A stretch of 64,000 nucleotides of DNA from a virus. Below, in pieces: positions 14,997 through 60,201 of this stretch (within the stretch, counting starts at the first letter, position 1; each line of letters starts with the position of its first letter). The position numbers were made by a program, and so were the translations under genes. Where the stretch lies: positions 1 through 64,000 of the IMG/VR virus record IMGVR_UViG_3300012979_000038; one strand, 5' to 3'. The notes beneath the pieces were generated by a model. It was given only the letters and a program-made list of their open reading frames with translations, did no database searches and was not told the DNA's origin.

Positions 14997-15278
14997 ATGA
15001 AAAACTTACAAGAATATATAACGGAATCATCTGCAAAAGTTGTTAGGAATCATAAGCTTAACAAACTTTTGAAACAGAATGGATTGGAAAAGATTCAACT
15101 ATGTAAAGGAAATGGTTATTTCTGGTTGACTAGCGAAGATGATGAAACATATCGGATTCTATCATCTTTAGAAACAACATCCATTTATACTAATTCATTT
15201 TCTGACCAGACACCAGAAGCATGGGTTGAAGAAATTAAAGAACTTTTAAAGGACACAGAACTTATACAAAACAAATAA
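14997..15278 (+). CDS. small protein with CTS-like N-terminus (MKNLQEYITES)
   Basis: Internal Met chosen (ORF opens at 14988 as MKHMKNL...). The leader resembles the MK[ST]L.xYI.E family described in findings. Confidence 0.4.
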   Translation: MKNLQEYITESSAKVVRNHKLNKLLKQNGLEKIQLCKGNGYFWLTSEDDETYRILSSLETTSIYTNSFSDQTPEAWVEEIKELLKDTELIQNK

Positions 15279-25200: not shown

Positions 25201-27804
25201 TGGTTGATACATAGGAACATAATATTCATTAGTTGAACCATCACCATAAGAGCAAGGATAGAAATCACCTGTTGCTGATTTATAGTAAAGTAAATTACCT
25301 CTACTTTCTAGAACTTCAGCTTCTTGATGGTTATATAATTTATGATATTTATCTTCACAAGTTTTCTTATTACATTGGAATTGACCAAGTTTAGAATAGT
25401 CATTTAATTCACCATGTGTAAATTCACCTGCACGATAGAATTCTGTCCAGTATTTAGCAGAACCGTCTAATGTTTTACCATCATTAGTTTTACCGAAGTA
25501 TAAACGGAAGTTTTTCTTTGGATAGAACATTGATGATGTACCTTGACAAGATACCCAAGCACCTCTTGCATAGAAATCTAAGTTAGGATCTGTTGGATCA
25601 TAGAATTCTACGTCAAATTCAGCGTTATTACTCTTGTTTGTAGCAGTATTAAGAATGTTAACATCACCATACATAACCATTGTAGGAATAGTATTCTTAA
25701 CAATATCTAGAGAAATACTATTTGTACCTTCTACATAAATATTATTTCTATCATACATTTCCAATAGGTTATCTGATTCTGCAATGAAGTTTGTTAATTC
25801 ATCATCTAATGATAATGCTTTATTATAAACACGGATTGAACGAATCTTAACGCCAGCTTTACCGTTTGGATCACCAATAACGATACCAGGATTTTCAGGA
25901 TTATTCCATTTAATAGAACCACCGAAAGTAGTTGCTCTATCCAAAATACCATTCATGATAATGAATGTTTTATTAGCATATAAGTCAACCGTTTGGTCGT
26001 AATTTTCTTTATAGTTACCAACGATAAATGCAAGTTTCAATCTTTCATTATCTTTAAAGTTACCAGTTACTACACCAGATGGAGACATATCACCAACTGA
26101 ACAACCACAAGCTGAAACTTCAATATGTGATCTGTTAGATTTATCTCTTACTGATAAAATAACTGCGTTTTCATCTTGAACATTAAATGTTTCGAAATCA
26201 ACTTCAAATGTTAAACCTGAATTTGTATAGTTATCGAATACATTAAATGGAATAAATGCAGTAGCACCACTATTCAATACCAAAGCTTTTCCATCCCAAC
26301 CAGATGTATCATTCCAAAGTACGTTGTTAAATTGAACATTAACATTACGATAATTCCATGTTGCAGGATTTGGTTCTGAGTTACTTCTGTTTTGAGCTTC
26401 AAGATTCAATACTAAAGATTCTTTAGTTACTGCAATTTGCGCAGCAGATTTAGCAACTTCTACAACAATATGCATAGAATCCAAAGGATTACCATTTGTA
26501 TCTTTACTTAATGTAGTAATATTGATATCGATATTACCATAAGTTAAGAATACATATTCGAATAGTTGTTCTTCACCAGATGAAATAGAACGCATCATAG
26601 AAGCAACATTTTCTGTTGTTTCACCTTCAGTTTTTGTTAATGCAAATTCCAAAGTTGTTGCAGCACCTGATGTACTAAACAAACCATAATTAAATGATGT
26701 AGAAGAGTATTGTTGTGTTTTAAATGAAATTGTATCTTCTGGATTAAATAATGCACCTGAACCTAAATCTTGAGAATACAAGATATAAGTCATATTCATT
26801 GGTGTATTTTTATCAACGATAACAAAGTCATAATATTTTGTCATTGAATAAAGACGAGAACCATCTTTATTTTCTACATACATTCTAAATTGGATTGTGT
26901 TTTTACCCAAATTGAATATAGGATTAAGTTCACCTAAGTCGTTGGTTAGATAAATAGACATGTTTGAACTATATTCTGGGTTTTTAGAAGCCATATAACC
27001 ATCAGTTGCTGTAGTTGATAAAGCTCCGTATTCTTCTGGAACCCAAGATTGGTTCAATGGTTTACCATTTACGTACCATTCCATGTATTTTTCACCTTGA
27101 CCACTAATAGAGTAAGGAATTGTAAAGTAGTTGTCATCTAAACCTAATGCGCTATCAAATTCAACTCCCTTCTTATTATCAAATGAAGATTCCAAAAGAA
27201 GTTCAACAACTGTATAAACAAAGTTTAATGTTGTTGTAGCTTGAGTAGATACACCAGTAAGAGTTACTGTGATGTTGTTTGTACCAACAGTCAAGTAATT
27301 ATCAATATTGATGTATTTTGGAATACCGTCTTGATAATTGTCGAAGTCAACAGGGAAGTTTTGAATAACTTGTGTAATTGTACCACCATTATTGAATACG
27401 ATACGTGCTTGTACTGCTTCAGTAATAGGGTTTTGACCACTATCCTTAACAATATAACGGAAGTAAAGTTCTTGACCTTTTTCTGAAGAAAGTATTGTTA
27501 CCATTTGACGAGATGTTTCATCTACACTAATAGATGCAGGAGCAGGAGCATCGAAAGTTGCTAAAAGCAAACCAGCATGTTCACCTGTTGTGTCATTAGC
27601 ATATTTGTTATAATCATCTTCATCAGCAAATACATAATACTTCAACGCAGTACGGTCATAGTGTAAATAACCAAACTTTTTTGCCAAAGTGTCTTTAATG
27701 AACTTTTGAACGAACTGACCTGATACCGCAGCACCACCGGTTGAGTTATCACCACCCCAGTCAACGGTTTTGTCAATCTCTTGTTCCCAAAGTTTTTCTG
27801 CCAT
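19237..27804 (-). CDS. giant virion structural protein (2855 aa), fibre/receptor-binding-like
   Basis: Uninterrupted 8.5-kb ORF in beta-rich N/T/Y/G composition. It leads a co-directional fibre gene cluster. Confidence 0.6.
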   Translation of the reverse strand: MAEKLWEQEIDKTVDWGGDNSTGGAAVSGQFVQKFIKDTLAKKFGYLHYDRTALKYYVFADEDDYNKYANDTTGEHAGLLLATFDAPAPASISVDETSRQMVTILSSEKGQELYFRYIVKDSGQNPITEAVQARIVFNNGGTITQVIQNFPVDFDNYQDGIPKYINIDNYLTVGTNNITVTLTGVSTQATTTLNFVYTVVELLLESSFDNKKGVEFDSALGLDDNYFTIPYSISGQGEKYMEWYVNGKPLNQSWVPEEYGALSTTATDGYMASKNPEYSSNMSIYLTNDLGELNPIFNLGKNTIQFRMYVENKDGSRLYSMTKYYDFVIVDKNTPMNMTYILYSQDLGSGALFNPEDTISFKTQQYSSTSFNYGLFSTSGAATTLEFALTKTEGETTENVASMMRSISSGEEQLFEYVFLTYGNIDINITTLSKDTNGNPLDSMHIVVEVAKSAAQIAVTKESLVLNLEAQNRSNSEPNPATWNYRNVNVQFNNVLWNDTSGWDGKALVLNSGATAFIPFNVFDNYTNSGLTFEVDFETFNVQDENAVILSVRDKSNRSHIEVSACGCSVGDMSPSGVVTGNFKDNERLKLAFIVGNYKENYDQTVDLYANKTFIIMNGILDRATTFGGSIKWNNPENPGIVIGDPNGKAGVKIRSIRVYNKALSLDDELTNFIAESDNLLEMYDRNNIYVEGTNSISLDIVKNTIPTMVMYGDVNILNTATNKSNNAEFDVEFYDPTDPNLDFYARGAWVSCQGTSSMFYPKKNFRLYFGKTNDGKTLDGSAKYWTEFYRAGEFTHGELNDYSKLGQFQCNKKTCEDKYHKLYNHQEAEVLESRGNLLYYKSATGDFYPCSYGDGSTNEYYVPMYQPLRDWLTVKQFRYSGATLYSIDGYSKIQNPVTGVEYDVPEFKKLKGKNALKEDKTYYVDQACWKQYEGSGWTNRWTLKTDFAESSMTHNAGAGRLWGNAMKMVQGTDDSGKTGYLCRTLAQQRMGELADGIDIRTSCDGKPIVIFACPLVRDEAGNVQYDENGFRKYGNAEFVGQFNIMTDKGSTPLFGFEDIYDENGNKIFSAEKVECWEASNNGSLFGQGVNLITDVHAAPGEEENTFMGTRFVMSDYEPRWPDVEIEGPDGDEYLVSHTHNIESMWRFVHFCKPGVDYLVDGLDGYTLSPYVEIPEAEYDKAVEDGLLVFVLDQRQLEEAGNKVYNNLEYKDSDDLRANAPVYKMLTNIDYENVSKTVSTKTIENHIYKGRVASFDATYGTFVEDIAFDDERVGDGEQVNYGDKIAGSPFEEDYYVSVYLEAAGGNKYNYTDNYGQQKQYVGSVDRDAYEVDKDGKSFAGRTYMEYFSEKKYDYFDVWKLAAYYIYLMRFAGIDQVVKNSMLTTEDGLHYYYINYDNDTTLGVRNDGHIVFHWTVDRNTYDYSKGQFAYAGPTSVLWNLLENDADFMNKVKQLDTAMYNSGVLSSKALLDMYNNKQAAWWPERMYNVQETIKYLPSGAGYLNFIHGSRTQHRTWWVTNRFNLYDSKWFSGEYSQNTIKFYMGIKNENASIYTDIFSITAARQNVFGLTNSDLDGAVPEHWAKEMEIDSTWEWTTNSTWNGISSPFSIMGVDKIKVLDFRKAVEAGHSFGKLEFIGNIANNWIKSKGTMMTKLLFGISDEFRTSDVYRYTNKTENAIVMTVGGNEITINAGEYYDAPQAVNAPDGLSLEILGPTRCNVALLSNMNDLNTLEEVDIRNCFNDSEEYHLGDFKINNLASLHVYRAIGSSITTFKPAEGVILNEVSLPVNRISDIELRNVTFTPAAEQTAEVFKYTPDAALKNVVLRNVTGIDIVKFVNDWDAALTEANVPHKSCNLTLENITCENVPVDFVMNVVDKFNLLNFTGTLSLISSIEDRQLTKEQYDAIVEKYGANVFSTGSALRFSADEGMFWSSSMEWNDDIDNKPQHMPAMCTEGWYEGIHETEYTFKCTKFPVNEGETMWYEAWYIPANGGNPVKLNYVNGTHNINNATGNPGPAVPCLQLTYDSNTSSCTFKSLFNGNSTRNRQQIFVLYPVINGDTDADNAIYITLKEVHVVTDFKLVCDNEHIGTLESDTVSLEDNKDHKFSIELLPNNTINVPIKTFRVTLDPADSASLKVSTVVNKDLTQCSFTLTPSFIPQTVTITANIYVLFDTEYDNKMGVGCPINKQVTFIVNPIYANEFDLLDAEGNVVEDKTILLNEADKTFNYTVRPYNTQYYEVWGEYYYNIPVESSVIGNYDLNVNNRTSIEIDKNNPLSMVVKVRSNKSGKTYLSFNDEDEFTLTIKHLGDATLENGNGVHDFIKDCTIDSQIVYPEVINILSVDKDENIESKMPTKLAAEAGDSKVIEYKVSLTAQSVAEDVSYPCTFTCVPEYFTDNTFTTVANAPISGFSVEYVNNDNWQDARVRIVIPHIGESTIDLEQSIILHCAARYEVGTDVINVTKDVQFTAVSSLASYGSPKECNPGTYFIDNYGLIYNLDAIDKMGDSSKLIGVLYVSPSIPKNHLPIAQFTGNGGKEVIGYESSDATINEQHAAIQKSGLIIKPNYIAIPLDYVRTNDYCFLPNVESSDLTTEDWELLNDFCNGWNTANNNLANIKKMYYGASSGLKDYLDEINKVSVSSGNPKYASSYNVESSGESECLTKSWISGKFLSNAICNEWITEFWNRNNNKNNANGEPSNWSFNDIDGLAEKEWPALAGSGTLRMAIPYFRNLFKVEGINSILKCFVGSKEEYLLLLEGLESIKDTVALLRGEDPEGTIIQSINEMLANVNNYILTASLLNVKQKEDLTVGGIIAPVAFAPLKSAVDGENVALTINNSEILAISFSTKAIYQTPFNSLPFIEI

Positions 27805-30381: not shown

Positions 30382-33300
30382 TTATTCATTAGGTTGTTCT
30401 TCTGGTGCTTCTTCTACAATTTTATCAACAACTGTTACAGAAATAGTTTTTGAAACATTTGAACCGTCTGTTGATGTTACTGTAATAATAGCTTCACCTA
30501 ATTTTTTAGCTCTAATTAAACCATTATCTTCTACTTCAACTATTTCTGGATCTGATGAAATCCATTTTAAAATTTGATTTGTAGTATCTGCAGGTTTAAC
30601 TTCTGCCATGATATAATCAGTGTTATCTAAAATAATAGTTATATTTTCTGAACCATCATGTAAAATGATTTCTTCAGTTTTAATAGAAACTGATAATAGA
30701 ATTGAAATAGTTACCGCTGCAGAGTCTTTTGATGTAGCAGAAATAATTGTTTTACCTTCTGCTCTACAAGAAATACGACCGTTAGCATCAATTGTAGCAA
30801 CTGATAAGTTAGAGCTATTCCATGTTACTTCTTGTACAGATGGATTATCTTCTCCATAAACTATCTTCATTGGAATAATATCTCCAACGAATCCAGACAT
30901 ATTAAACTTATCTACATATCCTTCAAAGTTCATATCATTAACAGGAATAGTAATTAACATATCGTTAGATGAATAAACATTTGTACCATCTTCTGCAATA
31001 AATGATATTGTTGTTGAACCAGAAGCAATAGCTTTAACATAACCAGTATATTTATTTGTTGTTCCTTCAACCAATTGTGGTGTTGAATATTCAACAACTG
31101 ATGTATCAGAAACGTTCATTAAAATTCTCTTATTATCAGCATTTTCTGGAAGTACTTCAACTTCATAGTTATTAGTTAAACCAATATCAAGTTTAGAATC
31201 CAAACCAGTAACGTTAATAGAATTAACACCAACTTCAACTTTAACATCAATAGAATCTGAAAGGTTTGTACCGTCAATTGTTGTAGCTGTTAATGTTACA
31301 GTACCGCTAGCCTTAGGAGTATACTCTCCATTTGGTTGAATATCAATGATTGAAGTATCTGAAGAAGTATAAATTAATTTTTGTTCTGTTGCATTTTCTG
31401 GAAGAATGATACAATTCAATTTATCTTTAATACCGATAAATCCGTAATTCTTAGAATTGATTTGAATTGATTCAACAGGAATAGCAATAAGAACATCTAT
31501 AGTTTTTCTTGCATCAAATCCATCGTTTGCGATTGCTGAAATTGTACATGTACCAGTTTTATAATTTCCTTTATCATCTTTCTTAGGAGTTACTAATCCA
31601 TTAGCATCAATGTTAACCATTTCATTATCGGATGCTTCCCAAGTAATAGAACCATCAGAAACTACTTCAGGAACTGTTGTATAATCTAATTGGAATGAAC
31701 CTCCTGGATATAAGTTTATAACATTAGTATTTGTATTAATTTGTTCAACTGGAGTAACAATTTTTAATCTTAATGTATCTGAAACTCTATTATTTTGTTT
31801 AGATGTAAGTTTAATTGAAGTTTCTGTTGTTATTTCATTAGAATTAACTGCAGCAATTCTTCCATCTTCGAAAACAGTAATAACAGAATCATCGTATTCC
31901 ATAGTCATATCAAATACGTTTGCATTTGATGGACTATAATTTAGCTTAATATTTTTAACAGTATTTTTCTTTAATACGATGTTATTATCTTCAAATTCAA
32001 TTGATGATAAATAAATAGGATCTACTGTTTCAACTTCTGATTTTTCTATATCATTAAAAATAAGAAGAATAGTTTCATCTTCATTAATTGTAATATATTC
32101 AGCTTCAACCCAGAATGGAACATTAATTCTAGTATATTCATAGTCCCAAACTTCGTTGCCATCTTCTCCAACTGAACTAACCATTCGTCTAGTATAATAT
32201 TGACGATTATCGTCATAAATATAATAAATAATAGAGAAGTTATTTAATGATTCAGAAGTAGATGCGTAGAATTCGTCACGTACAGTTTTTACATGAGTAT
32301 AATGTGTAAAAGTATTAACGTTTGAACCTTTATCGTATTCTACAACGATATATTCTTCGAACGAATCTGTATCAATATCTTCTAAACTATTTACTTCTAC
32401 CCATAGTCCTGATTCATTTTTAAAATATCTTATAGGTTTCTTTTCTAAGAATGCTTCTATATTATCTATATAAACATATTCTCCATTTACTAATGTATAA
32501 TACATTGTAAATCCTGAGAAATCAATATCGTTTTTATCTAAAATTCTTTTATATTCATCAGAACCAATTTGTGCATATACATTAAGAGCTAATTCTGAAG
32601 CATCTAAATTATAATCGTAAGTTTTTGTGATTTTATCCCAATAAACTTTAACGTCGCAATCTGCATCATTTAAATGATATGTAAATGTTCTGTTACCAGT
32701 TCCATCTACTGTAATTAAATCATAATTTTCTCCATTCTTAACATAAAGAGGAGAACCATCTGTTAATTGCGCAGATGTTGCTTCAAAATAACCTGCTAAT
32801 GCGCCAAGATAAATATCGTTCCATAAGTCGCAATAAATAGAATCGTAAGCACCGCTGAAGTGATTCAAAACAAAATATTCCGTAGAACCTGATGATTCAT
32901 ATGTCCAATATTTTAAATAAAGTTTATGAATAGCTGGATCTGCGTTAAATAAAAGAACTTCTTGATTATCTTCTTCTGAAATAAATTCTGCATCAATAAA
33001 AATCATATTTCTGAATAAAAGTTGATACTTTTCATCAGTCATATAAGTTTCAGTCATTTCTTTTAATACATTTTCTATTTCAATACCTTGTTGAGCTGAT
33101 AATACTTTTTCAGCATCATCTGTATCAGTATCATTAACAATCATAAGGTATTTTTCTGATCTATTATAATCAAGAGCAGGAGCATCACCTTTATCTCCTC
33201 TAATACCCTTTTCTCCTTGTACACCTTTATCACCTTGAGGACCGTTAAAAACTCCCAAAACTAATGAAGAACCATCTTTTAAAACAACTTCAAATAATTG

Positions 33301-33480
33301 TGGTTTATTATCTTCAAAAGTTTCTGTTTGAATAATATTTTCAATTCTTGTTTGATTAATATTATCCAAAGAAGTTTTATAGTTTTTCTTATTGTGAGCT
33401 AATAATACTTGGGCATTAGAAAGCAGACCTGGCAATGTAGATAAATCTGTTATCTTTGTGATTTTATTATAATTTGCCAT
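30382..33480 (-). CDS. collagen-like / Big_2 (Ig-like) repeat fibre protein
   Basis: 1032 aa. G-x-y run GPQGDKGVQGEKGIRGDKGD. Several Big_2-like repeats near the C-terminus, for example LGEAIITVTSTDGSNVSKTISVTVV. Confidence 0.6.
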   Translation of the reverse strand: MANYNKITKITDLSTLPGLLSNAQVLLAHNKKNYKTSLDNINQTRIENIIQTETFEDNKPQLFEVVLKDGSSLVLGVFNGPQGDKGVQGEKGIRGDKGDAPALDYNRSEKYLMIVNDTDTDDAEKVLSAQQGIEIENVLKEMTETYMTDEKYQLLFRNMIFIDAEFISEEDNQEVLLFNADPAIHKLYLKYWTYESSGSTEYFVLNHFSGAYDSIYCDLWNDIYLGALAGYFEATSAQLTDGSPLYVKNGENYDLITVDGTGNRTFTYHLNDADCDVKVYWDKITKTYDYNLDASELALNVYAQIGSDEYKRILDKNDIDFSGFTMYYTLVNGEYVYIDNIEAFLEKKPIRYFKNESGLWVEVNSLEDIDTDSFEEYIVVEYDKGSNVNTFTHYTHVKTVRDEFYASTSESLNNFSIIYYIYDDNRQYYTRRMVSSVGEDGNEVWDYEYTRINVPFWVEAEYITINEDETILLIFNDIEKSEVETVDPIYLSSIEFEDNNIVLKKNTVKNIKLNYSPSNANVFDMTMEYDDSVITVFEDGRIAAVNSNEITTETSIKLTSKQNNRVSDTLRLKIVTPVEQINTNTNVINLYPGGSFQLDYTTVPEVVSDGSITWEASDNEMVNIDANGLVTPKKDDKGNYKTGTCTISAIANDGFDARKTIDVLIAIPVESIQINSKNYGFIGIKDKLNCIILPENATEQKLIYTSSDTSIIDIQPNGEYTPKASGTVTLTATTIDGTNLSDSIDVKVEVGVNSINVTGLDSKLDIGLTNNYEVEVLPENADNKRILMNVSDTSVVEYSTPQLVEGTTNKYTGYVKAIASGSTTISFIAEDGTNVYSSNDMLITIPVNDMNFEGYVDKFNMSGFVGDIIPMKIVYGEDNPSVQEVTWNSSNLSVATIDANGRISCRAEGKTIISATSKDSAAVTISILLSVSIKTEEIILHDGSENITIILDNTDYIMAEVKPADTTNQILKWISSDPEIVEVEDNGLIRAKKLGEAIITVTSTDGSNVSKTISVTVVDKIVEEAPEEQPNE

Positions 33481-34695: not shown

Positions 34696-35901
34696 ATGGC
34701 AAGAAAAAGTGTAACTTTAAGTAAAACATCAGAAAAGAAACTAGTATCGTTTTTAAAACACAATCAAGAATATATAACTGAAGAATTTGAAACAAAATTT
34801 AGGGAACAAGTTATATATGACATTAAAAATATTAGAGAATGCTCCGAAAAGAAAATCGTTGATTTTTATTGTGAAGTAGCAAAATCAATGTTAGAATCTG
34901 GAGAAGTCAATTTCAATGACGAATTCTTTAATACTCTCAAAAATAAAGTTAGATCTAAATTATCTCAAGTTTATACATCAGGTAAAACATTCGATAATAA
35001 TATCGACATTTATTTTAATGAGGTAAAATCTATCTATATTAAAAATCCTCAAAACGAATCAGATGGACTTGAGTTTATTCCAGAAAACAGAGACATTTTC
35101 ATTAAAAACAATTTGAAGTTAGTTATTGAATGTGCTAAACGTTATCGTGATCTCGGTTTACCATTCGAAGATTTAATTCAAGTTGGAAATTATGGTTTAT
35201 TAATTGCATTTGATAAATTTGATACTGATAGAGCAAATTTACGTATTGCGATTATGAACGATATTAAAAATTCAGCTACAGAAACATTTACTAAATTAGA
35301 AGCTGAAGAAATCATTCGCAAAAATTTCACTTATTCTAAAAACTTAGAACAAACAATAAATTCTATTCCAGAAAATGGATTTGAATCAAAGGAAAAATTT
35401 ATTGAGTGGTCTAAGGTAAATATCAAAACAGCAGTATTCGCTTCAGTGGCTTTCCAATGGATTAGAGCAAATATCATTATTGAGCTCAATAAATATGGAA
35501 AGATCTTAAAAATTCCAAATTCAGTTAAAAATGATTTAGGTGCAGCGTCAATCATAAGATTGGATTCGTTGAACCCATATACTGATGATTGTTATCATGA
35601 TAATCAAATTTCAGATTACATTAATAATGAATTTAAAACTGAATATGAATTATATGATGAACAAGAACAAGAAGAATTATACAAAGAAACTGTAGAAGAT
35701 CTTTTATCTATTTTAAACAATCAAGAACGTCGTATTATTAAAAAGAAGTTTGGAATAGATTATCCGTATGAAATGAGTCCTAATGATATTGCAGAGAACG
35801 AAGGATTACCTGTTAATAAAGTAAAACAGATAATTAATTCATCAATGAAAAAATTATCTAACGAAGCTAATAGAAGCGGAAAGAAATCTATCTTTTCGTA
35901 A
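34696..35901 (+). CDS. sigma-70 family RNA polymerase sigma factor
   Basis: Region 2.2 DLIQVGNYGLLIAFDKFD, region 2.4 FQWIRANII, region 4 HTH ERRIIKKKFGIDYPYEMSPNDIAENEGLPVNKVKQI. Confidence 0.8.
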   Translation: MARKSVTLSKTSEKKLVSFLKHNQEYITEEFETKFREQVIYDIKNIRECSEKKIVDFYCEVAKSMLESGEVNFNDEFFNTLKNKVRSKLSQVYTSGKTFDNNIDIYFNEVKSIYIKNPQNESDGLEFIPENRDIFIKNNLKLVIECAKRYRDLGLPFEDLIQVGNYGLLIAFDKFDTDRANLRIAIMNDIKNSATETFTKLEAEEIIRKNFTYSKNLEQTINSIPENGFESKEKFIEWSKVNIKTAVFASVAFQWIRANIIIELNKYGKILKIPNSVKNDLGAASIIRLDSLNPYTDDCYHDNQISDYINNEFKTEYELYDEQEQEELYKETVEDLLSILNNQERRIIKKKFGIDYPYEMSPNDIAENEGLPVNKVKQIINSSMKKLSNEANRSGKKSIFS

Positions 35902-35948: not shown

Positions 35949-37751
35949 ATGGTTTTTGGAAATTTTAATGATGTGATGGAAGGTGAAAAACAATTATATG
36001 AAGCTTTGCAAGATAATTTATTCACCAATTCAATAAGAAATTCACAGATATCCGTAAATAATAAGAAACAATCTGCTTGGTCAAAACTATTAAACCTTTT
36101 ATCTCAATACGGTATGAATTATGATGACCAAGTATTAAGAAATATGTCTGCTATTCCAGCGGATAAAGCTCTTCAAAATAAAGAGGATGTAATGTTACAA
36201 AACTCTATGTATGGAGCTTTAAATAACTGGAAGGTTAAGGCGGAAGAAGACAAGGCATTTTCAGAAAAGACGTTGGAACAACGTCGTCAAATGTTAAGAA
36301 AGCTTTCACAAGCAACAGAACTTGAAGATATTCTTGACGTTATGGCAAATGAATGTATTGTTTATGATGATGACGAATCATATATTGGACAACCATTTAT
36401 TGATACTGGTTTAACACAAGATTTAACAGAAAAATCTACAGAAGAAATTCGTAACTGTGTTAACATGGCATTCTATAAATTGTATATGTTATTAGGATGG
36501 AAAACTTCTGCATGGGACGATTTTAAACGATTCCTAATCGATGGTGTATTAGCATATGAAATTGTTTATGATGATTTGGAACATCCAAAAACAATCATCG
36601 GTATTATTGATGTTGACCCAGTAACATTAACAAAAGAAGTTAAAGACGGTACAACAACATGGGTACAATATAAAGGTGTACAAGGACGTGAAAGAGTTTT
36701 ATTGGATGCTCAAATAATTTATATTAAATATGAAGATTCTGGTGTATCTGAAAGACAATCGTATCTTGAACGTTTAATTCGTCCATTTAATTTGTACCGT
36801 ATTGTAGAACAAGCACAAATTATTTGGACAGTAACTCAAGCATCATTTAAAACTTTGTTCACAATACCTATTAGTGGTATGAATAAAGCTAAGGGTATGC
36901 AAACGCTTTCTCAAGCAATGAATAGATATCGTGAAGATATTTCATTCAATGGAGAAACTGGTGAACTTCAAATTAATGGTAAAACTAATCTTCCATTTAA
37001 CAAAGAATATTGGATGCCAGAAAATGAAAATGGTAAACCAGAAATCGAAACACTTGTAGATAATGGTCCACAACTTAATGATTCTGACCAAATCAAGTAT
37101 TTTGAGGCAAAACTTTATAAAATGTCAAAAATTCCAAGTTCACGTTTTGATAAAGAAGCACAAACAACTTGGTTTGGATCAGATGCAACTCAACAAATGA
37201 GAGATGAAATTAACTTTGGACGTTTTGTATCTCGTTTAAGAAATACTTTCGTACAAATTATTCTTAAACCTTTACGTATTCAAGTTGCATTAACAGTTCC
37301 AGATATTAAGAATGATAAACGTATTCTTGATGCTATTTCATTTAGATTCAATACTTACAATCAGTTTACTGAAATGATGGATATTGAAATAATGACAAAA
37401 CGAGTTGAATTTATTGGAACAATGAAAGATTCATTAACTGTAATTGATTCTGATGGTGAAGAAAAACCATTCTTCTCACCAAAATTCTTAATTATTAAGT
37501 ATTTGAAGATGTCAGAAGCTGATTTAGAATTGAACGAAAAATATAAACTAGAAGAAAAAATTGCTTCCCAAAAGAGTGGAGATTCTGAATCAGAAGGAGA
37601 TGAAGGAGGAGACGATACTGATTTAATGGGAGGAGATGAAGGAGGAGATGAAGGAGGTTCTCCTGAAAAAGAAACTGATGGTGGAGGTGATTTAGATTCA
37701 GAAATGTTAGGAGACGTTCAACCAGAATCTACAGAAACTACAGAAGCTTAA
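35949..37751 (+). CDS. portal protein (T4 gp20-like)
   Basis: Segment YRIVEQAQIIWTVT...NKEYWMPENENGKPEIETLVDNGPQLND parallels T4 gp20 YRITRAPDRRVWYVDT...[24 protein letters not shown]. Acidic Gly/Asp/Glu-rich C-terminal tail as in gp20. Confidence 0.65.
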   Translation: MVFGNFNDVMEGEKQLYEALQDNLFTNSIRNSQISVNNKKQSAWSKLLNLLSQYGMNYDDQVLRNMSAIPADKALQNKEDVMLQNSMYGALNNWKVKAEEDKAFSEKTLEQRRQMLRKLSQATELEDILDVMANECIVYDDDESYIGQPFIDTGLTQDLTEKSTEEIRNCVNMAFYKLYMLLGWKTSAWDDFKRFLIDGVLAYEIVYDDLEHPKTIIGIIDVDPVTLTKEVKDGTTTWVQYKGVQGRERVLLDAQIIYIKYEDSGVSERQSYLERLIRPFNLYRIVEQAQIIWTVTQASFKTLFTIPISGMNKAKGMQTLSQAMNRYREDISFNGETGELQINGKTNLPFNKEYWMPENENGKPEIETLVDNGPQLNDSDQIKYFEAKLYKMSKIPSSRFDKEAQTTWFGSDATQQMRDEINFGRFVSRLRNTFVQIILKPLRIQVALTVPDIKNDKRILDAISFRFNTYNQFTEMMDIEIMTKRVEFIGTMKDSLTVIDSDGEEKPFFSPKFLIIKYLKMSEADLELNEKYKLEEKIASQKSGDSESEGDEGGDDTDLMGGDEGGDEGGSPEKETDGGGDLDSEMLGDVQPESTETTEA

Positions 37752-37757: not shown

Positions 37758-38339
37758 ATGAAAACACTTAAAGATTACATATTAGAGAAAAGTTGGGATA
37801 AATATCAACAAGGTGTTTATCCCGACGATTCTATTAAAAGCGCTATTTATGATTATGTAAGTGGTATGACAAGCGGAGTAAATTATGACCTCCGAAAAGG
37901 AAATACCAGAGGTTCTAAAAAAGTTATTGATAAATTGGATTCTGCTTTTAAAGATGCAAACTATGCAGATGGTAAAATATTAAATGTTTGGAGAACTGTT
38001 GACTGGGATTATATGAAAAATATATACGGTGCAACTAGAGAAAACATAAAAGATTTTGTTGGAAAAACTTTTGAGAATAAAGGTTATATGTCAACAACGA
38101 AGAAGTTTGGTTCACCTTGGGGTAAAAGTTGGATGAAAGATGATTTGGTTATGCATATTACTTCAAAAGATCCTTATCCAGTTTTAGATATAAATAGAAT
38201 TTTTAAATCATCTGAAATAGATTGTGCTGACCAAGAAGAGTATTTATTACCAAGAAGTACTAAATTGGTTTTGAAAAAAATATCTTATCATAGAAATAAA
38301 CATAAAACCATCGAATTAGAGATGGAAATTGAATCATGA
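37758..38339 (+). CDS. mono-ADP-ribosyltransferase (C3/Alt-like) with CTS-like N-terminus
   Basis: R-S-E triad: YDLRKG (Arg), GYMSTTK (STS motif), QEEYLLPRST (Q-x-E followed by LLPR as in C3 exoenzyme QLEMLLPR). N-terminus MKTLKDYILEK. Confidence 0.75.
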   Translation: MKTLKDYILEKSWDKYQQGVYPDDSIKSAIYDYVSGMTSGVNYDLRKGNTRGSKKVIDKLDSAFKDANYADGKILNVWRTVDWDYMKNIYGATRENIKDFVGKTFENKGYMSTTKKFGSPWGKSWMKDDLVMHITSKDPYPVLDINRIFKSSEIDCADQEEYLLPRSTKLVLKKISYHRNKHKTIELEMEIES

Positions 38340-39016
38340 AATTTAGTGAAACAGAATTATTACCAGGTGTTGTTATAGATGTAGATGATCCAAAAATGTT
38401 AGGAAGAGTTAAGGCAACTGTTCCAACTTTATTTGATGAAAGCGTAATGAGTAAAGATGGAATGCCTTGGATTTATCCATTAACTATGATAGGTTATCAG
38501 GGATTTTCTAAATTACAAAAAGGTTCAAAAATCTGGGTGTTTAAACAAAAAGGTAAAAATCGTGAATTTTGGTATATTCCAATGTTTGAACTTAATAAAA
38601 ACACCAGAGATGTTGTTGAAAATTATAAAGAGCCAGAAGTTTTAATATCAAGATCTGCTGGTTCTGAATCAGTATATATTTATTATAATGACGTTGATGG
38701 AATTCAATTAAAGATTGGTTCAGAAAATTATGTAAATATTAAACCAGATTCATCAATAACATTAAAATCTGGTAATGCTAGAGTAGACTTAAAAGAAGGA
38801 AAAATTTATATAGGTGATGGAAACGCAATAGAACCATCAATACTTGGAAATAAACTTTTTGATGCTTTATCAAATTTATCTAAAAATCTTGGCGCCATTG
38901 CTGGTATGTGTTCAAATCCATTTACATTACCATTAGCTACAACTTTCCAACAAGCATCAACTATGTTAAGTCAAGATATACAAAATATACGCTGCGACAA
39001 CACATTCATTAATTAA
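38336..39016 (+). CDS. gp5 N-terminal-like OB-fold (Phage_base_V/gpV-like) baseplate hub/spike domain protein
   Basis: LPGVVIDVDDPKMLGRVKATVP versus T4 gp5 FVGVVEDVMDPKFMGRVRVRV; DGMPWIYPL versus DLPWAHVL. Confidence 0.6.
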   Translation: MKFSETELLPGVVIDVDDPKMLGRVKATVPTLFDESVMSKDGMPWIYPLTMIGYQGFSKLQKGSKIWVFKQKGKNREFWYIPMFELNKNTRDVVENYKEPEVLISRSAGSESVYIYYNDVDGIQLKIGSENYVNIKPDSSITLKSGNARVDLKEGKIYIGDGNAIEPSILGNKLFDALSNLSKNLGAIAGMCSNPFTLPLATTFQQASTMLSQDIQNIRCDNTFIN

Positions 39017-39018: not shown

Positions 39019-40461
39019 ATGGCAGAAAAAAAATCAGTAAACGAAGTTGTTAAACCTAAAGAAGAAAAAAAGGAGAAAAAACAGGAAGAAACCATTTTGT
39101 CATTATCTAAAACTCCAGATGAAGAGTTAGTGAAAATTATTGTGCATGAAAATGTAATGCTAACTAATGCATTACAAAGCGCCAGAAAAGATTCTCGCAA
39201 GTTGAAAAAAGATTATGTTCTTAAAGAAATAAAAGAAGAAGAAATAGTAGAAGGAGAAGAAAAAAAAGGAGAAGAGAAAAAAGACGAAGATACTCCAAGA
39301 CCAAAATATCGAGTTACATTAACATTATTAAAAAAGACTATAGTTATTTCTGGAAAAGAACAAGGAGATTCAAAACGTGAAAAACAATTACAAGATTTTG
39401 CAAAAACCAAAGCTGAATACGTTTTCGATAATAATTTAATATCAAGGGATAATTTTAAATTAGATACAGACAAATTTATTCCAAATGTAAAAGGAACTGA
39501 AACAGAATGGGAATATAAAGCAGTTTATAAATGTTCAGTTAAAGATACCTTTAAAGATTTAGGTGGTATTTTAAGCGAAGAAACCATTAAACAAGCAGCT
39601 GCAGCTGAAAAGAAAAGTGGAGATGATTTCTTAGCTGGTAAGCCATCTTCACCATTTGGTCCAGCAATGACATCAAAATCACTTGGAGAATTTCAAGCAA
39701 ATGTTGTTGGCGGATTGACACAGGCTACAGTTAATGGAGTTACGCAAGTTGCTGGCTCGACTCTCGGTGTTGCTGGTGCAGCTGCTGGTGTTGTTGGTTC
39801 AGCGGCAGAAACCGCTTTATTATGCACTAATATTGTTACTGAAGCATTTTCATATATTTCAAAAGAATTAATTGCTTATTGTACGGCTGTAGCTGTCGAT
39901 TTAGCAACATTAGATATTTCTCCAGTGGCTAAAAAAATTGGTGAAATATTAACTAATGGTTTACAAACTCCGGATGAAATGCTTAAAGAATTAATGACCA
40001 ATGCAGAAAAAGCTTTAGAAGATGCCCAAAAGGCAGCGGAAGATGAATTAAAAAACGATAAAATACAGGAAATGAAAATTAAAGCAGAGGAATTCAAAAC
40101 CAAAATGGATGATACATTAAATATGGTTAAAGAAAAAATTGATTCAGTAACTGCTTATATAGAAGCTGGACCTGATTGGTTAGAAGAAAAAATTGATGAT
40201 TTATCATATAAATGTTTTGAGCAAATTGGTATACAGGCAGGTAAAGCTACATATACTTTCAATGAAAAGAAACAAGAATTTATAGATAAAATAGCTGAAA
40301 ATATAGCCGAACCAAAAGCCAGAACAATAAACGAAAAGGCAAAAGAAGCACAAAAGAAAACAATGGACAAAGCTAACGCCCAAATAAAAAAATTAGCAGC
40401 TATGGCTGCGGCATTGGTAGCAAAAGCTATGATGTTGTTAGCATCTTTATTAGGAGGATAA
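39019..40461 (+). CDS. Lys/Glu-rich virion-associated protein (scaffold- or internal-protein-like) with Gly/Ala-rich hydrophobic segment
   Basis: 480 aa. N-terminus KEEKKEKKQEE. Central GVAGAAAGVVGSAAETALL. C-terminal helical Lys/Glu/Ala-rich region. It follows the portal, ADP-ribosyltransferase and gp5-like genes. Confidence 0.4.
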   Translation: MAEKKSVNEVVKPKEEKKEKKQEETILSLSKTPDEELVKIIVHENVMLTNALQSARKDSRKLKKDYVLKEIKEEEIVEGEEKKGEEKKDEDTPRPKYRVTLTLLKKTIVISGKEQGDSKREKQLQDFAKTKAEYVFDNNLISRDNFKLDTDKFIPNVKGTETEWEYKAVYKCSVKDTFKDLGGILSEETIKQAAAAEKKSGDDFLAGKPSSPFGPAMTSKSLGEFQANVVGGLTQATVNGVTQVAGSTLGVAGAAAGVVGSAAETALLCTNIVTEAFSYISKELIAYCTAVAVDLATLDISPVAKKIGEILTNGLQTPDEMLKELMTNAEKALEDAQKAAEDELKNDKIQEMKIKAEEFKTKMDDTLNMVKEKIDSVTAYIEAGPDWLEEKIDDLSYKCFEQIGIQAGKATYTFNEKKQEFIDKIAENIAEPKARTINEKAKEAQKKTMDKANAQIKKLAAMAAALVAKAMMLLASLLGG

Positions 40462-40490
40462 ACAGTTTATGAAAATATATTAAAAAATAA

Positions 40491-40521
40491 AGAACCTCAT
40501 TGAGGTTCTTTTTTATTTTTT
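40491..40521. terminator. bidirectional terminator between convergent genes
   Basis: AGAACCTCATTGAGGTTCT followed by TTTTTTATTTTTT. Confidence 0.6.
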
Positions 40522-53160: not shown

Positions 53161-54114
53161 ATGAAGTCATTAAATCAATACATAAACGAGAAACTTGTTT
53201 TGAAGTCTAATAGCAAAATTAGAAAACATCAAGAATATAATTATCATCCTAAAACAAATGAGGAATTAAGAACGTTAGTTAATGAACTCATTGAAGAACG
53301 TGGTATTGAAGCTGATTTAAACGACATTGATACATCAAAAATTGATGATATGTCACATGTATTTGAAAACAAAAAATTTGATGGAGATATTTCAGACTGG
53401 GACGTTTCTAATGTAAGATATATGGGACATATGTTTTTATATAATTTTGATTTTACCGGAAAAAACACAGATTTTAGTAACTGGGATGTATCAAACGTTT
53501 ATCATGCCGATGGAATGTTTGCTGGATGTCAAAAGTTTGAAGGTAAAGGATTGGAAAACTGGAAATTGAAATCGTTAGGAGTAGCAAAAGAAATGTTCGC
53601 CAATTGTCATGAGTTAAATTTCGACATAACAAATTGGGATATTTCTAATATAGAATACTTTGAATCGATGTTTATAAATTGTAAAAAATTCAATCAAGAT
53701 TTATCTAACTGGAAATTCAATCATAATGTTAGAAATTTAACTGGTTTATTTATGGGGTGTGAAAGTTTCGAAGGAAAGGGATTGGAAAATTGGGATGTTA
53801 GTAAAATAACAAATATGAGAAGTATGTTTGCTGGCTGTGCAAAATTTAATGCCGATATAACTAAATGGGATGTTTATTCAGTTATTGGCATGTGTAATAT
53901 GTTTCATGGATGTAAAGAATTTAATCAGGATTTATCTAATTGGAATGTAAAAAATCTTATGGATATTACTGAAATGTTTAGGGATTCTGGTATGACATAT
54001 AATTTAGCAAAATGGGCACCTAAGCTTCACAATAAATGTAAAATAAAAAATGCATTAACTAATACACCGGTAACTAAATCAAAACGTCAACCTTTCTGGT
54101 ACTTTAGAAAATAA
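53161..54114 (+). CDS. DUF285-repeat protein, paralog 1, with CTS-like N-terminus
   Basis: Tandem ~22-aa repeats F.GDIS.WDVSNV..M..MF typical of DUF285 (Mycoplasma-type repeat). N-terminus MKSLNQYINEKLVLKSNSKIRK shared with 4 paralogs. Confidence 0.7.
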   Translation: MKSLNQYINEKLVLKSNSKIRKHQEYNYHPKTNEELRTLVNELIEERGIEADLNDIDTSKIDDMSHVFENKKFDGDISDWDVSNVRYMGHMFLYNFDFTGKNTDFSNWDVSNVYHADGMFAGCQKFEGKGLENWKLKSLGVAKEMFANCHELNFDITNWDISNIEYFESMFINCKKFNQDLSNWKFNHNVRNLTGLFMGCESFEGKGLENWDVSKITNMRSMFAGCAKFNADITKWDVYSVIGMCNMFHGCKEFNQDLSNWNVKNLMDITEMFRDSGMTYNLAKWAPKLHNKCKIKNALTNTPVTKSKRQPFWYFRK

Positions 54115-54119
54115 TATAA

Positions 54120-54150
54120 AAGGGGAACATTTAGTTCCCCTTATTTTTTT
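54120..54150. terminator. bidirectional terminator
   Basis: AAGGGGAACATTTAGTTCCCCTT followed by a T-run. Confidence 0.6.
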
Positions 54151-54520: not shown

Positions 54521-54524
54521 ATTC

Positions 54525-55076: not shown

Positions 55077-55081
55077 AATAT

Positions 55082-55303: not shown

Positions 55304-55311
55304 TTTTTGTT

Positions 55312-56639: not shown

Positions 56640-57632
56640 ATGAAAAGTTTAACCCAACATATAACAGAGAAACTTGTATTAACTAATAAATCAAAAATAC
56701 GAGGAAAACATACATATAATTATTTTCCAAAAGATTTGAATGAATTACGTGACATCATGTATAAATTAATTGATGAACGAGGAAATAAAGCAAACTTGAA
56801 CGATATTGATGTTTCTAATATAACAACATTAGAAGGATTATTTAGAGAGTTTGATGAGTTTAACGGTGATATTTCGCAATGGGACGTTAGTAATGTTTTG
56901 ATTATGACAGATACATTTGCTGTATCTGAATTTACTGGTGATATTTCTCAGTGGGATGTTTCTAGTGTTACTAATATGCAACGCATGTTTCATGATTCAG
57001 AATTTGATGGAGATATTTCAGATTGGAACGTTCGTAATGTAGAGAATATGATTGATATGTTTAATGGCAGCAAATTTACTGGTGATTTAAATAAATGGGA
57101 TGTTAGTAAAGTAAAAGATATGTCAGGTATGTTTGGTGAATCTATATTTGAAGGTAATATTTCTGATTGGAACACGAAAGCAGTTGAGCGTATGGATTGC
57201 ATGTTTGAAGATAATTTGGTATGGAATGGCGATATATCTAAATGGGATGTTTCTAATGTTATTTCAATGATACGTATGTTTCATTATTCAGGATTTACCG
57301 GTAAACATGGTTCATTAAAAAATTGGAATGTTGAAAAGGTAATAGATGCACAATTAATGTTTGCCGAAACTGAGTTTAACGGTGATCTATCTGGTTGGAA
57401 ACTTAAAAGCGCAAAAACTATTAGATCCATGTTTTTACGTTCATCTTTTAATAATGACAGTATTAAAGATTGGAATAAATATTTAAACAGTGTAAGAAAT
57501 ATGAATTTCATGTTTTCTGAAACCAAATTTTCACAAGATTTATCTCATTGGACTATTGATAAACGATGCGACTTTGTTGGAATGTTTGATGATTGTCCTA
57601 TAAAAGAAGAATATAAACCAAAATTTAAATAA
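56640..57632 (+). CDS. DUF285-repeat protein, paralog 2
   Basis: N-terminus MKSLTQHITEKLVLTNKSKIRG; repeats GDISQWDVSNV; C-terminus CPIKEEYKPKFK. Confidence 0.7.
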   Translation: MKSLTQHITEKLVLTNKSKIRGKHTYNYFPKDLNELRDIMYKLIDERGNKANLNDIDVSNITTLEGLFREFDEFNGDISQWDVSNVLIMTDTFAVSEFTGDISQWDVSSVTNMQRMFHDSEFDGDISDWNVRNVENMIDMFNGSKFTGDLNKWDVSKVKDMSGMFGESIFEGNISDWNTKAVERMDCMFEDNLVWNGDISKWDVSNVISMIRMFHYSGFTGKHGSLKNWNVEKVIDAQLMFAETEFNGDLSGWKLKSAKTIRSMFLRSSFNNDSIKDWNKYLNSVRNMNFMFSETKFSQDLSHWTIDKRCDFVGMFDDCPIKEEYKPKFK

Positions 57633-57633
57633 T

Positions 57634-58332
57634 ATGAAAAGTCTAACACAACATATAACAGAAAAACTTGTACTAAACTCCAATTCAAAGATTAGAAAAA
57701 ACAAAGAATATAATTATCATCCTAAAACAAGAGCTGAACTAAAAAAACTAATAGAACAACTTATTAAAGAACGTGGTTATGAAGCAGATTTAAACGATAT
57801 CGATACATCTTTAATAACAGATATGTCAAGTTTATTTTTTGGATCGTATTTTAATGGAAATATATCTGAATGGGATGTAAGTAATGTTGATAATATGGAT
57901 GGAATGTTCAATGGATGTAAATTTACAGGCGAAAATGGAGATATATCTGGATGGAATGTAAATAATGTAGAAGATATGAGTTTTATGTTTAGTGATTCTG
58001 AATTTAACGGTGATATATCTGATTGGAATGTATGTAAAGTACAGAACATGACATGTATGTTTTTAAACTCAAAATTTAATGGAGATTTATCTAAATGGAA
58101 TGTTGGCAATGTAAAATATATGACAAGTATGTTTAAAGAATCTGAATTTACTGGAGAAAATGGAGATATATCTAATTGGGATTTACACAGTATATCTATG
58201 ATTGATGAGATTTTTAAACAAACAAAATTCAATAAAGATATATCTAAATGGAATATTAATAAAAATTGCTCAACAGTAGATATGTTTAAGGAATGTCCTA
58301 TAAAAGAAGAATATAAACCTAAGCTTAAATGA
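57634..58332 (+). CDS. DUF285-repeat protein, paralog 3
   Basis: N-terminus MKSLTQHITEKLVLNSNSKIRK; C-terminus CPIKEEYKPKLK. Confidence 0.7.
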   Translation: MKSLTQHITEKLVLNSNSKIRKNKEYNYHPKTRAELKKLIEQLIKERGYEADLNDIDTSLITDMSSLFFGSYFNGNISEWDVSNVDNMDGMFNGCKFTGENGDISGWNVNNVEDMSFMFSDSEFNGDISDWNVCKVQNMTCMFLNSKFNGDLSKWNVGNVKYMTSMFKESEFTGENGDISNWDLHSISMIDEIFKQTKFNKDISKWNINKNCSTVDMFKECPIKEEYKPKLK

Positions 58333-58334
58333 TT

Positions 58335-59156
58335 ATGAAAACATTAAACCAATATATAGAAGAGAAACTTGTTTTGAATTCTAATTCAAAGATTAGGAAA
58401 CAACATTATAATTATCATCCCAAAACAAGAGATGAGCTAAAAGAAATAGTTAAAAAACTTATTGAAGAAAGAGGTAATGAAGCTAACTTAAACGATATTA
58501 ACACATCTTCAATAACAGATATGTCAAATATGTTTGAAAATATAAAATTTGTAGGTGATATTTCAGGCTGGGATGTTAGCAACGTTACTAATATGAGTTG
58601 GATGTTTTATAAATCTGAATTCAATGGAGATATATCTAAATGGGATGTTAGTAATATTGAAGTCATGTATTGTATGTTTGCACGTTCAAAGTTTAACGGC
58701 GACATATCTGATTGGGATGTAAGAAAAGTTAAAGATGTATCAGGGATGTTTGAAGAATCTAAATTTAATATGGATATATCTAAATGGGATGTTAGAAACG
58801 TAGAAAACATGTCACATATGTTTCATAAATCTGAATTTAATGGAGATATATCGCAATGGGATGTTAGTAGTGTTACTAAAATGACTGCTATGTTTAATAC
58901 GTCTTCTTTTAACGGAGATATTTCTAAATGGAAAGTTGACTCAGTTAAAGATATGGGATATATGTTTTATGAATCTAAATTCAATGGAGATATATCCAAA
59001 TGGAATGTGGATAAAGTAGAAGATATGAGGGCAATGTTTAAAAAATCAAAATTTAATAAAGATATATCTGGTTGGAATATTTTGATGATGTGTGATATTG
59101 CGAATATGTTTAAACAATGTCCTATAAAAGAAGAATATAAACCTAAGTTTAAATAA
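58335..59156 (+). CDS. DUF285-repeat protein, paralog 4
   Basis: MKTLNQYIEEKLVLNSNSKIRK taken as the start; the ORF opens 2 codons earlier with ATGA overlap. C-terminus CPIKEEYKPKFK. Confidence 0.7.
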   Translation: MKTLNQYIEEKLVLNSNSKIRKQHYNYHPKTRDELKEIVKKLIEERGNEANLNDINTSSITDMSNMFENIKFVGDISGWDVSNVTNMSWMFYKSEFNGDISKWDVSNIEVMYCMFARSKFNGDISDWDVRKVKDVSGMFEESKFNMDISKWDVRNVENMSHMFHKSEFNGDISQWDVSSVTKMTAMFNTSSFNGDISKWKVDSVKDMGYMFYESKFNGDISKWNVDKVEDMRAMFKKSKFNKDISGWNILMMCDIANMFKQCPIKEEYKPKFK

Positions 59157-59157
59157 T

Positions 59158-60201
59158 ATGAAAACATTAAAGCAATATATAGTAGAGAAACTCGTTTTAA
59201 CTAACAATACAAAGATTAGAAAACGAGAATATAATTATCATCCAGAAACGAAAGATGAGTTAAAAAAATTAGTTAAAAAACTCATAGAAGAACGAGGAGA
59301 TAATGCAGATTTAAATGATATTGACGTTTCAGAAATAACTGATATGTCTAGCTTATTTAGTTTTTCTCATTTTAACGGAGATATATCTGGTTGGGACGTT
59401 AGTAATGTTAAAGATATGTCCCATATGTTTTCAAGTAGTTATAAGTTTAACGGTGATATATCAAATTGGGATGTTGGTAATGTAACTAATATGAGTTGGA
59501 TGTTTAATTTTTCTAAATTTGATGGTGATATATCTAGATGGGATGTTAGTAATGTTACTAACATGGACGGTATGTTTAATGATTCACATTTTATGGGAGA
59601 TATATCTAAATGGGACACAAGTAAATGCAAATCTATGATTATTATGTTTGAATCTTCAAGTTTCGATGGAGATATTTCTAAGTGGAATGTAAGTTCTGTT
59701 GAAAATATGGGCTCTATGTTTAAGAAGTCACAATTCAATGGAGACATATCTGAATGGGATGTAAGTTCAGTCAAAAATATGGGTTGGATGTTTGAAGAAT
59801 CAAAATTTAATGGTGATTTATCTAAATGGAATGTGAGTTCTGTAGAAAAAATGACAAATATGTTCCATAGTTCTAAATTCAATGGAGATATATCAAAATG
59901 GAATGTCGGTAAAGTTACTGACATGTCCGGTATGTTTACTAAAACTAATTTTAATGGAGATATAAGTAAATGGGATGTTAGTAATGTTACTGACATGCTA
60001 TGTATGTTTGGTTGGTCTAAATTCAATGGAGATATAAGTAAATGGAATGTTAGAAATGTTGAAAATATGGAATCAATGTTTAACAAAACTGAATTCAACA
60101 GAGATATATCTAAATGGGACGTAACATCTGTTAAAACATTTAATAATATATTCTATGAATGTCCAATAAAAGAAGAATATAAACCAAAGTTTAAAAAATA
60201 A
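59158..60201 (+). CDS. DUF285-repeat protein, paralog 5 (longest repeat array)
   Basis: N-terminus MKTLKQYIVEKLVLTNNTKIRK; about 12 repeats; C-terminus CPIKEEYKPKFKK. Confidence 0.7.
   Translation: MKTLKQYIVEKLVLTNNTKIRKREYNYHPETKDELKKLVKKLIEERGDNADLNDIDVSEITDMSSLFSFSHFNGDISGWDVSNVKDMSHMFSSSYKFNGDISNWDVGNVTNMSWMFNFSKFDGDISRWDVSNVTNMDGMFNDSHFMGDISKWDTSKCKSMIIMFESSSFDGDISKWNVSSVENMGSMFKKSQFNGDISEWDVSSVKNMGWMFEESKFNGDLSKWNVSSVEKMTNMFHSSKFNGDISKWNVGKVTDMSGMFTKTNFNGDISKWDVSNVTDMLCMFGWSKFNGDISKWNVRNVENMESMFNKTEFNRDISKWDVTSVKTFNNIFYECPIKEEYKPKFKK

Follow-up and report, generated by a model that had tools for sequence, protein, structure and literature searches.

ADP-ribosyltransferases (ARTs) encoded by phages are overrepresented in myoviruses, where their genes are frequently neighbours of terminase, portal, or capsid genes, and about 44% of them are estimated to occur in contexts implying packaging into the head (Iyer et al. 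2022, PMC9503650). They are commonly encoded by jumbo phages, especially by those without an RNA polymerase of their own (Iyer et al. 2021, PMC7824862). In phage T4, the ART Alt is processed by gp21 and injected (PMC9026906; PMC9503650), and the first 10 residues of the leader of the T4 internal proteins (IPs) suffice to bring foreign proteins into the head (PMC9026906). The gene described here, located at 37758..38339 (+ strand) of a 64,000-nucleotide stretch of viral DNA (positions 1 to 64,000 of IMG/VR record IMGVR_UViG_3300012979_000038, hereafter the window), encodes a predicted ART of 193 aa that begins with a leader resembling that of the T4 internal proteins. Portal-adjacent phage ARTs and their likely packaging are already documented (Iyer et al. 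2022), and current concepts are unchanged by this locus. Less ordinary are the presence of a T4-style leader on an ART and on BspA-like proteins in a lineage far from T4, and the ART family's own I-D-C-x-x-Q-x-E loop.

The open reading frame (ORF) starts with ATG, begins MKTLKDYILEKSW, and consists of 193 codons and a stop. The start codon is unambiguous, because the preceding in-frame stop and the ATG have just one codon between them. The original prediction, made from the letters of the window alone, had placed an ORF of 193 aa directly after the portal gene, and this was confirmed, the ATG being located 6 nt past the portal stop. Using the ART as query, tblastn gave no match at E ≤ 1e-3 among 50,697 phage records. 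The nearest relatives were found in metagenomes only, and the identical sequence was present on the 80,883-bp metagenomic contig ENA ERZ27246411, as well as in other samples. No match was obtained in NCBIfam and PADLOC, and the protein is no recognised component of a defence system.

The product is almost certainly an R-S-E class mono-ADP-ribosyltransferase of the C3/VIP2/Alt family, as predicted from its sequence and modelled structure. An ART-family hidden Markov model search and a fold prediction, both suggested earlier as checks, agreed on this assignment. Pfam family PF03496 (ADPrib_exo_Tox) matched above its curated threshold over nearly the whole profile (E 1.4e-12; 47.8 bits against a cut-off of 23.4; ART residues 23-188, profile positions 17-190 of 196) and was the sole Pfam domain found in the protein. 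PHROG 3895, annotated as 'ADP-ribosyltransferase exoenzyme toxin', matched with E 1.2e-6. Seventeen metagenomic homologues were obtained from a protein database, with 48-90% identity and lengths of approximately 182-209 aa, and all 17 carry PF03496.

A family profile was based on alignment A1, comprising 18 members (the ART and its 17 homologues). Searches with this profile matched C3stau2 (1ojq, E 2.6e-8), the Listeria ART Lmo0066 (8za7, E 1e-5), and C3larvin. The AlphaFold2 model calculated from the same alignment was confident (predicted local distance difference test score 88.8, predicted TM-score 0.84) and displayed an ART fold. When it was compared with the PDB by Foldseek, the best matches were C3 exoenzymes; the top ranks were occupied by C3bot1 (E 3e-10), C3lim, Certhrax, C3stau2, and Plx2A, with E values up to 4e-9 and TM-scores of 0.64-0.68. 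C3cer, ExoT, and the iota and C2 enzymatic components were also matched, the whole set covering E values from 3e-10 to 1e-8 and TM-scores of 0.58-0.68. All 50 structures listed among the 142 PDB matches (E ≤ 0.001) were ARTs. Among predicted viral structures (BFVD), the matches were phage VIP2-like, Alt-like, MuF-ART, and portal-ART proteins. Apart from this, an unusual architecture was noted in the representative search, where protein P0036 (2201 aa) contained nine tandem PF03496 ART domains (E 1.5e-124).

The three sequence motifs on which the original prediction was founded were all found, namely Y43-D-L-R46-K-G, G109-Y-M-S112-T-T114, and Q159-E-E161-Y-L-L-P-R-S. Residues R46, R79, Y110-M-S-T113, I154, D155, Q159, E161, and R166 were invariant across the homologues. 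The proposed R-S-E signature thus stood with regard to its presence and conservation, but its first residue had to be reassigned from R46 of YDLRKG to R79. The R of the triad sits on the first core strand (PMC7827354); since R79 lies in strand 76-81 of the model and R46 is helical, R79 is the canonical residue. Arg79 (NVWRTV, 37992..37994, + strand) corresponds to Arg85 of C3stau2, and Arg46 (37893..37895, + strand), the second conserved arginine, is found in helix 41-46 and corresponds to Arg48. Ser112-Thr113-Thr114 (38091..38099, + strand) form the S-T-S/T motif on strand 111-114 and align with FMSTT of Lmo0066.

The ADP-ribosylating turn-turn (ARTT) loop, I154-D-C156-A-D-Q159-E-E161 (38217..38240, + strand), aligns with GQQEVLLPR of C3stau2. 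Within it, Gln159 takes the specificity position, Glu161 is the catalytic residue, and Cys156 occupies the position that is usually aromatic. The loop is defined as X-X-aromatic-X-X-E/Q-X-E, with the aromatic residue contacting the substrate in C3, iota toxin, and ScARP, and a Gln to Glu swap turns C3 from asparagine to arginine specificity (PMC7827354). Cys156 is present in at least 90% of the ART family, whose signature can be written as [E/D]-I-D-C-x-x-Q-x-E. Because the specificity position is an invariant Gln, the loop argues against an arginine acceptor. The acceptor is probably not arginine, unlike that of T4 Alt, ModA, and ModB, and may be an amide side chain (Asn or Gln) or a guanine-type amino group. 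Judged from sequence and predicted fold, the ART would be a small, catalytically intact, NAD+-dependent enzyme.

In comparison with described enzymes, the ART shares with the C3 exoenzymes (C3bot1, C3lim, C3stau2, C3cer) and with C3larvin and Plx2A a length of about 200 aa, a single domain, and the Pfam family. Two arginines, the S-T-S/T motif, and Q-x-E followed by LLPR are common to the ART and the C3 exoenzymes. In contrast, C3 exoenzymes are secreted, possess an aromatic ARTT residue, and modify RhoA, RhoB, and RhoC at Asn41, whereas the ART has no secretion signal, carries Cys at the ARTT position, shows 16-24% identity, and is encoded in a phage structural operon. As Cys156 stands where C3 has an aromatic residue, the protein is not a typical C3. 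A target other than that of C3 is expected, given the ARTT Cys, the phage operon, and a bacterial host without Rho GTPases.

T4 Alt, a packaged enzyme acting on RNA polymerase, is likewise phage-encoded, belongs to PF03496 (E 5.8e-36), and has a 10-residue N-terminus ending in hydrophobic-x-E. It differs in size, its 682 aa containing the ART domain at 374-614 after a region of about 370 aa, whereas the ART domain fills the 193 aa of the protein described here. The catalytic motif of Alt, E574-M-E576, is of the arginine-specific type, compared with Q159-E-E161 in the ART. Pairwise similarity between the two proteins was marginal (BLASTP E 0.006 over 75 residues). The T4 alt gene adjoins tail and ligase genes, while the ART gene follows the portal gene. 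The label 'C3/Alt-like' of the original prediction is justified by the Pfam, PHROG, profile, and fold matches and by the membership of T4 Alt in PF03496. The ARTT Cys and the lack of a secretion signal separate the ART from C3, and Q-x-E and size separate it from Alt.

In ART family, linkage to portal or head genes, and presumed entry along with the DNA, the locus agrees with MuF-ART fusions and polyvalent injected proteins (PMC9503650). These differ in that a MuF or other head-protein domain is fused to the ART. The present ART has no fused domain, and targeting by a short cleavable leader is proposed for it.

This putative capsid-targeting and processing peptide, MKTLKDYILE, corresponds to codons 1-10 (37758..37787, + strand), with the proposed cleavage after Glu10. 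It is similar to the capsid-targeting sequence (CTS) of the T4 internal proteins (IPI, IPII, and IPIII), represented by MKTYQEFIAE of IPII and IPIII, having equal length, M-K-T, a hydrophobic residue at position 4, an aromatic residue at 7, Ile8, and Glu10. In the T4 leader, targeting depends on positions 4 and 7, whereas positions 8 and 10 are important for processing by gp21, a protease that cuts after L/I-x-E (PMC9026906). N-termini of about 10 residues ending in hydrophobic-x-E are also found in other T4 prohead-core proteins, namely Alt (MELITELFDE), gp24 (MAKINELLRE), gp22 (MLKEQLIAE), and likewise gp21. A CTS-like leader had been proposed from the start, and at the level of sequence this was borne out by agreement with the T4 CTS at the key positions and by recurrence on unrelated ORFs.

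The recurrence was determined by searching the six-frame translation for the pattern MK.[LFIMY]..[YFH][ILV].E, with 200 sequence shuffles as the null. Seven occurrences were found in the window, all seven at the first Met of an ORF, compared with a mean of 0.06 and a maximum of 1 in the shuffles. The carriers are the ART, a 93-aa ORF, and five DUF285/BspA-like repeat proteins. The 93-aa ORF (14997..15278, + strand) has the leader MKNLQEYITE and no Pfam match. One of the repeat proteins (53161..54114, + strand; PF03382, E 3.8e-68) has the leader MKSLNQYINE, and the other four are tandem paralogues, each with a leader, at 56640..60201 (+ strand; starts 56640, 57634, 58335, and 59158; PF03382, E 2.7e-46 to 1.6e-164). 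A degenerate leader was observed on two more ORFs, at 49175-49396 and 61472-61765, both on the minus strand. The leader codons vary synonymously between genes, which indicates that the peptide is under selection.

Among the ART homologues, the leader is kept in nearly all members and E10 in at least 90%; one member starts with MKTYNEFVSE. On related contigs, the leader was found on a HAD-like phosphatase and other ORFs. Outside the window, the same pattern was given by IPII and IPIII in the T4 DNA examined, and one small ORF of Tenacibaculum phage PTm1 was the only other Met-preceded match; the few remaining matches were internal or ran across stop codons. A literature search, which was not exhaustive, gave no account of this leader beyond the T-even phages. 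In T-even phages, as in the window, the leader is present on otherwise unrelated, fast-evolving proteins (PMC3012670). The cargo differs, since the T4 internal proteins are small and basic, some being restriction inhibitors, while that proposed for the window consists of an ART and BspA-like proteins, joined in relatives by a HAD-like phosphatase. The phage carrying the leader is only distantly related to T4 (23% portal identity), and the role of the leader here is putative.

Several side observations concern the leader carriers. In the five DUF285/BspA-like leucine-rich-repeat paralogues, the leader is followed by a conserved segment, EKLVL.(S/N)N(S/T)KIR..YNYHP, and these paralogues are candidate abundant internal or ejected proteins. 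On related contig L010, the HAD-superfamily phosphatase-like protein (4093-4737, + strand) has the leader MKRIIEYITEA and is encoded directly upstream of, and overlapping, ART homologue P0002. On L003, an ORF at 11905-12495 (+ strand) has two tandem leader copies, MKTLKDFVVESFISESVE followed by MKSLLTYILEG, and then GAGSSGTAYDLGNGFVRK, a segment rich in glycine that recalls a kinase loop; no Pfam family matched this ORF. Just past the leader of the ART, within the coding region, a 15-bp hairpin was found at 37792-37826 (+ strand; RNA fold z -5.65). The consensus structure across six homologues was weak (-3.1 kcal/mol), and the hairpin was set aside as an element, its folding probably being incidental to the codons used for W-D-K and Y-P.

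Within a cluster of five genes on one strand, the ART comes third. The first is a sigma-70 family gene (34696..35901, + strand; Sigma70_r2 and r4; phrog_351, E 1.9e-24; TIGR02937, 69 bits against a cut-off of 42.9), located 48 nt upstream of the portal gene. The portal gene (35949..37751, + strand) is of the T4 gp20 type (PF07230, E 1.2e-74; phrog_213; tblastn with T4 gp20 as query, E 9e-26, 23% identity) and lies immediately upstream of the ART. The ART stop overlaps in ATGA with the start of a gp5/VgrG-like baseplate hub OB-domain gene (38336..39016, + strand; PF04717, E 5.6e-5, at the cut-off; phrog_430, E 3e-11). The last gene encodes a 480-aa protein (39019..40461, + strand) with coiled-coil stretches, a Lys/Glu-rich N-terminus, and two Ala/Gly-rich hydrophobic segments, for which no significant family match was found in Pfam, PHROG, and NCBIfam. 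From these features, it might be a tape-measure-like or membrane-active ejection protein.

The cluster is closed by a bidirectional terminator-like hairpin at 40489..40511, with a 10-bp stem and T runs on both strands, and this position after the fifth gene is the sole strong terminator-like site on the ART strand. Sigma-70-type promoter matches in the region (43, compared with 46.6 expected from shuffles) were not above expectation. The cotranscribed layout with the portal and hub genes suggests that the ART would be made together with virion parts. In a Pfam overview of the 58 further ORFs of the window, no protease, macro, or ADP-ribosylhydrolase domain was among the 25 of 30 families listed, and no RNA polymerase domain was among the families listed for the window.

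The arrangement around most of the homologues examined was different. The portal-ART order was kept in one of five loci, L011 (69% identity), and not in L001, L003, L005, and L010. Elsewhere, the homologues follow a HAD-like phosphatase gene, a RimK-like ligase gene, a gp13-like gene, or an unrelated 618-aa ORF, and no neighbours were shared. Conserved synteny was rejected, as none of the portal, hub, 480-aa, and sigma proteins was matched within 10 kb of the ART in L001, L003, or L005. The differing neighbours of the homologues imply that the ART gene changes its location within these genomes, so that following the portal gene does not define it. RimK/ATP-grasp peptide-ligase genes were noted near ART homologues at L003 8337-9998 (directly upstream), L005 1290-2957, and L001 14283-15752.

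Operon position, the leader, and the published generalisations together suggest an injected host-takeover enzyme. According to the proposed mechanism, the leader would dock the ART on the scaffolding core of the prohead, as the CTS of the T4 internal proteins does, and a T4 gp21-type prohead protease would remove it after Glu10 (I-L-E|K). The mature ART would remain within the head, pass into the host with the DNA, and, right as infection begins, ADP-ribosylate a host macromolecule on an acceptor other than arginine. Delivery of the ART into the host by the virion is plausible, the evidence leaning slightly towards it. As the phage encodes a sigma factor of its own, and the Pfam families listed for the window include no RNA polymerase, the host transcription or translation machinery is proposed, speculatively, as the most likely class of target.

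Several observations weigh against this mechanism. No prohead protease, scaffold, or major capsid gene was found in the window or on its 80,883-bp source contig, as searched with T4 gp21, gp22, gp23, and gp24 and with the protease and capsid proteins of the uncultured phage LR756500 and of PTm1 against the window and both contig extensions (the remaining 17 kb). The required protease is thus inferred from relatives only. A T4-type maturation protease is expected in the lineage because the portal relatives LR756500 and PTm1 encode one, in the form of a gp21-like protease-scaffold fusion after the portal (E about 1e-10 to T4 gp21). In the family profile, ART residues 2-16, and with them most of the leader, align with the first helix at the N-terminus of mature C3stau2, a helix that supports catalysis in C3larvinA (PMC7789906). 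For this reason, removal of the leader could impair the enzyme. The ART equally adjoins a tail-hub gene, and position alone cannot tell head from tail; moreover, the portal-ART arrangement recurs at a single locus, as described above. Finally, the Q-x-E rule is an empirical guide and does not determine the target.

An active ART could also be made late and act, unpackaged, in the infected cell on host or phage proteins during assembly, for instance protecting the portal or terminase from host immunity or contributing to late host shut-down. The leader would then have another purpose, such as setting the level of expression, aiding folding, or binding a shared partner. What supports the enzyme assignment applies to this possibility as it does to delivery, the contig without a protease or scaffold gene is compatible with it, and the countering of immunity directed against the packaging apparatus was raised by Iyer et al. 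as another reading of the ART-portal linkage (PMC9503650). Against this, the leader fits the T4 CTS at the key positions, occurs only at ORF N-termini, and is common to unrelated proteins; unless these proteins undergo the same targeting or processing step, such sharing would be difficult to account for, which makes an unpackaged ART less easy to accept and, on balance, unlikely. The overlap of the ART stop with the start of the hub OB-domain gene would instead fit cargo of the tail tip, carried on or in the gp5/VgrG-like hub spike and set free once the envelope is punctured, in analogy to the VgrG-linked effectors of type VI secretion. However, the same leader is present on genes far from the tail genes (14997 and 53161-60201), the homologues adjoin unrelated RimK-like, gp13-like, and HAD-like phosphatase genes, and the leader looks like a signal for targeting to the head and unlike known adaptors of the tail, so that a place at the tail tip is improbable.

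A conversion factor of the C3 exotoxin type, secreted by the host bacterium against eukaryotic Rho GTPases, would agree with the best structural and profile matches, which are C3 exoenzymes, and with Q-x-E. C3bot itself is phage-encoded. The N-terminus, MKTLKDYILEKSWDKYQQ, is nevertheless hydrophilic and without a signal-peptide core; read by eye, without a predictor, MKTLKDYILEKSWDKYQQGVYPDD showed no hydrophobic core. In addition, the ARTT aromatic residue that docks C3 on RhoA is Cys in the ART, identity to C3 proteins reaches just 16-24%, and the gene is part of a structural operon in a large phage that also encodes functions in replication and nucleotide metabolism. A role as exotoxin is therefore extremely improbable. 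Both a secreted toxin (no signal core, ARTT Cys) and a MuF fusion (no MuF domain) were rejected on sequence. A degenerate or non-catalytic ART fold kept for structure, or an NADase acting only in NAD+ depletion, was considered very improbable. Many ART-fold proteins are NAD+ glycohydrolases in vitro, which counts in favour of an NADase, but every catalytic position is invariant in the 18 sequences down to 48% identity. The conserved I-D-C-x-x-Q-x-E loop, together with these invariant sites, therefore indicates selection on substrate recognition as well as on NAD+ binding.

Returning to virion delivery, a wider and rather doubtful possibility is that the MK(T/S)L..(Y/F)I.E leader is a portable T4-type tag for capsid targeting and cleavage that survives in a clade of uncultivated large phages far from T4, and that the ART, in that case, acts in a bacterial target on an acceptor other than arginine or on a base of a nucleic acid. 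If true, the set of injected proteins could be read from sequence, comprising the Q-x-E ART and the five BspA-like proteins and, in relatives, the HAD-like phosphatase and the possibly kinase-like protein. The acceptor type of the ART would represent a specificity so far undescribed for a virion-delivered phage ART. A leader working as proposed would also mean that capsid targeting of the T4 kind long predates the T-even phages and reaches far beyond them, and it would offer a simple sequence rule for finding injected effectors in metagenomic phage genomes. A short natural tag of this kind might help to load other phages with cargo. The first-strike modifiers of phages would gain, with the ART, an enzyme of the Gln type that probably does not act on arginine, and a new point of host takeover could come to light through its target.

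With regard to the wider genomic setting, the G+C content of the window is 29.7%. The closest relatives by portal are the 462-kb LR756500 (41% identity), Sphingomonas phage PAU, Tenacibaculum phages PTm1 and PTm5, and the Lak megaphages. Other genes of the window encode NrdD, a family B DNA polymerase, gp32, glycosyltransferases, and Big_2-rich fibre-like proteins. A ScaI-like restriction endonuclease domain, a UDP-galactopyranose mutase accompanying the glycosyltransferases, and a Band_7/SPFH protein were also noted, and lipoprotein-like signal peptides were observed at 5695-5964 and 5985-6812. On the minus strand, a 2855-aa ORF without a called domain (19237-27804) lies upstream of an 804-aa ORF and of a 1032-aa Big_2-rich ORF, the latter in the region 30382-33480; these large ORFs are presumably tail-fibre or adhesin-like.

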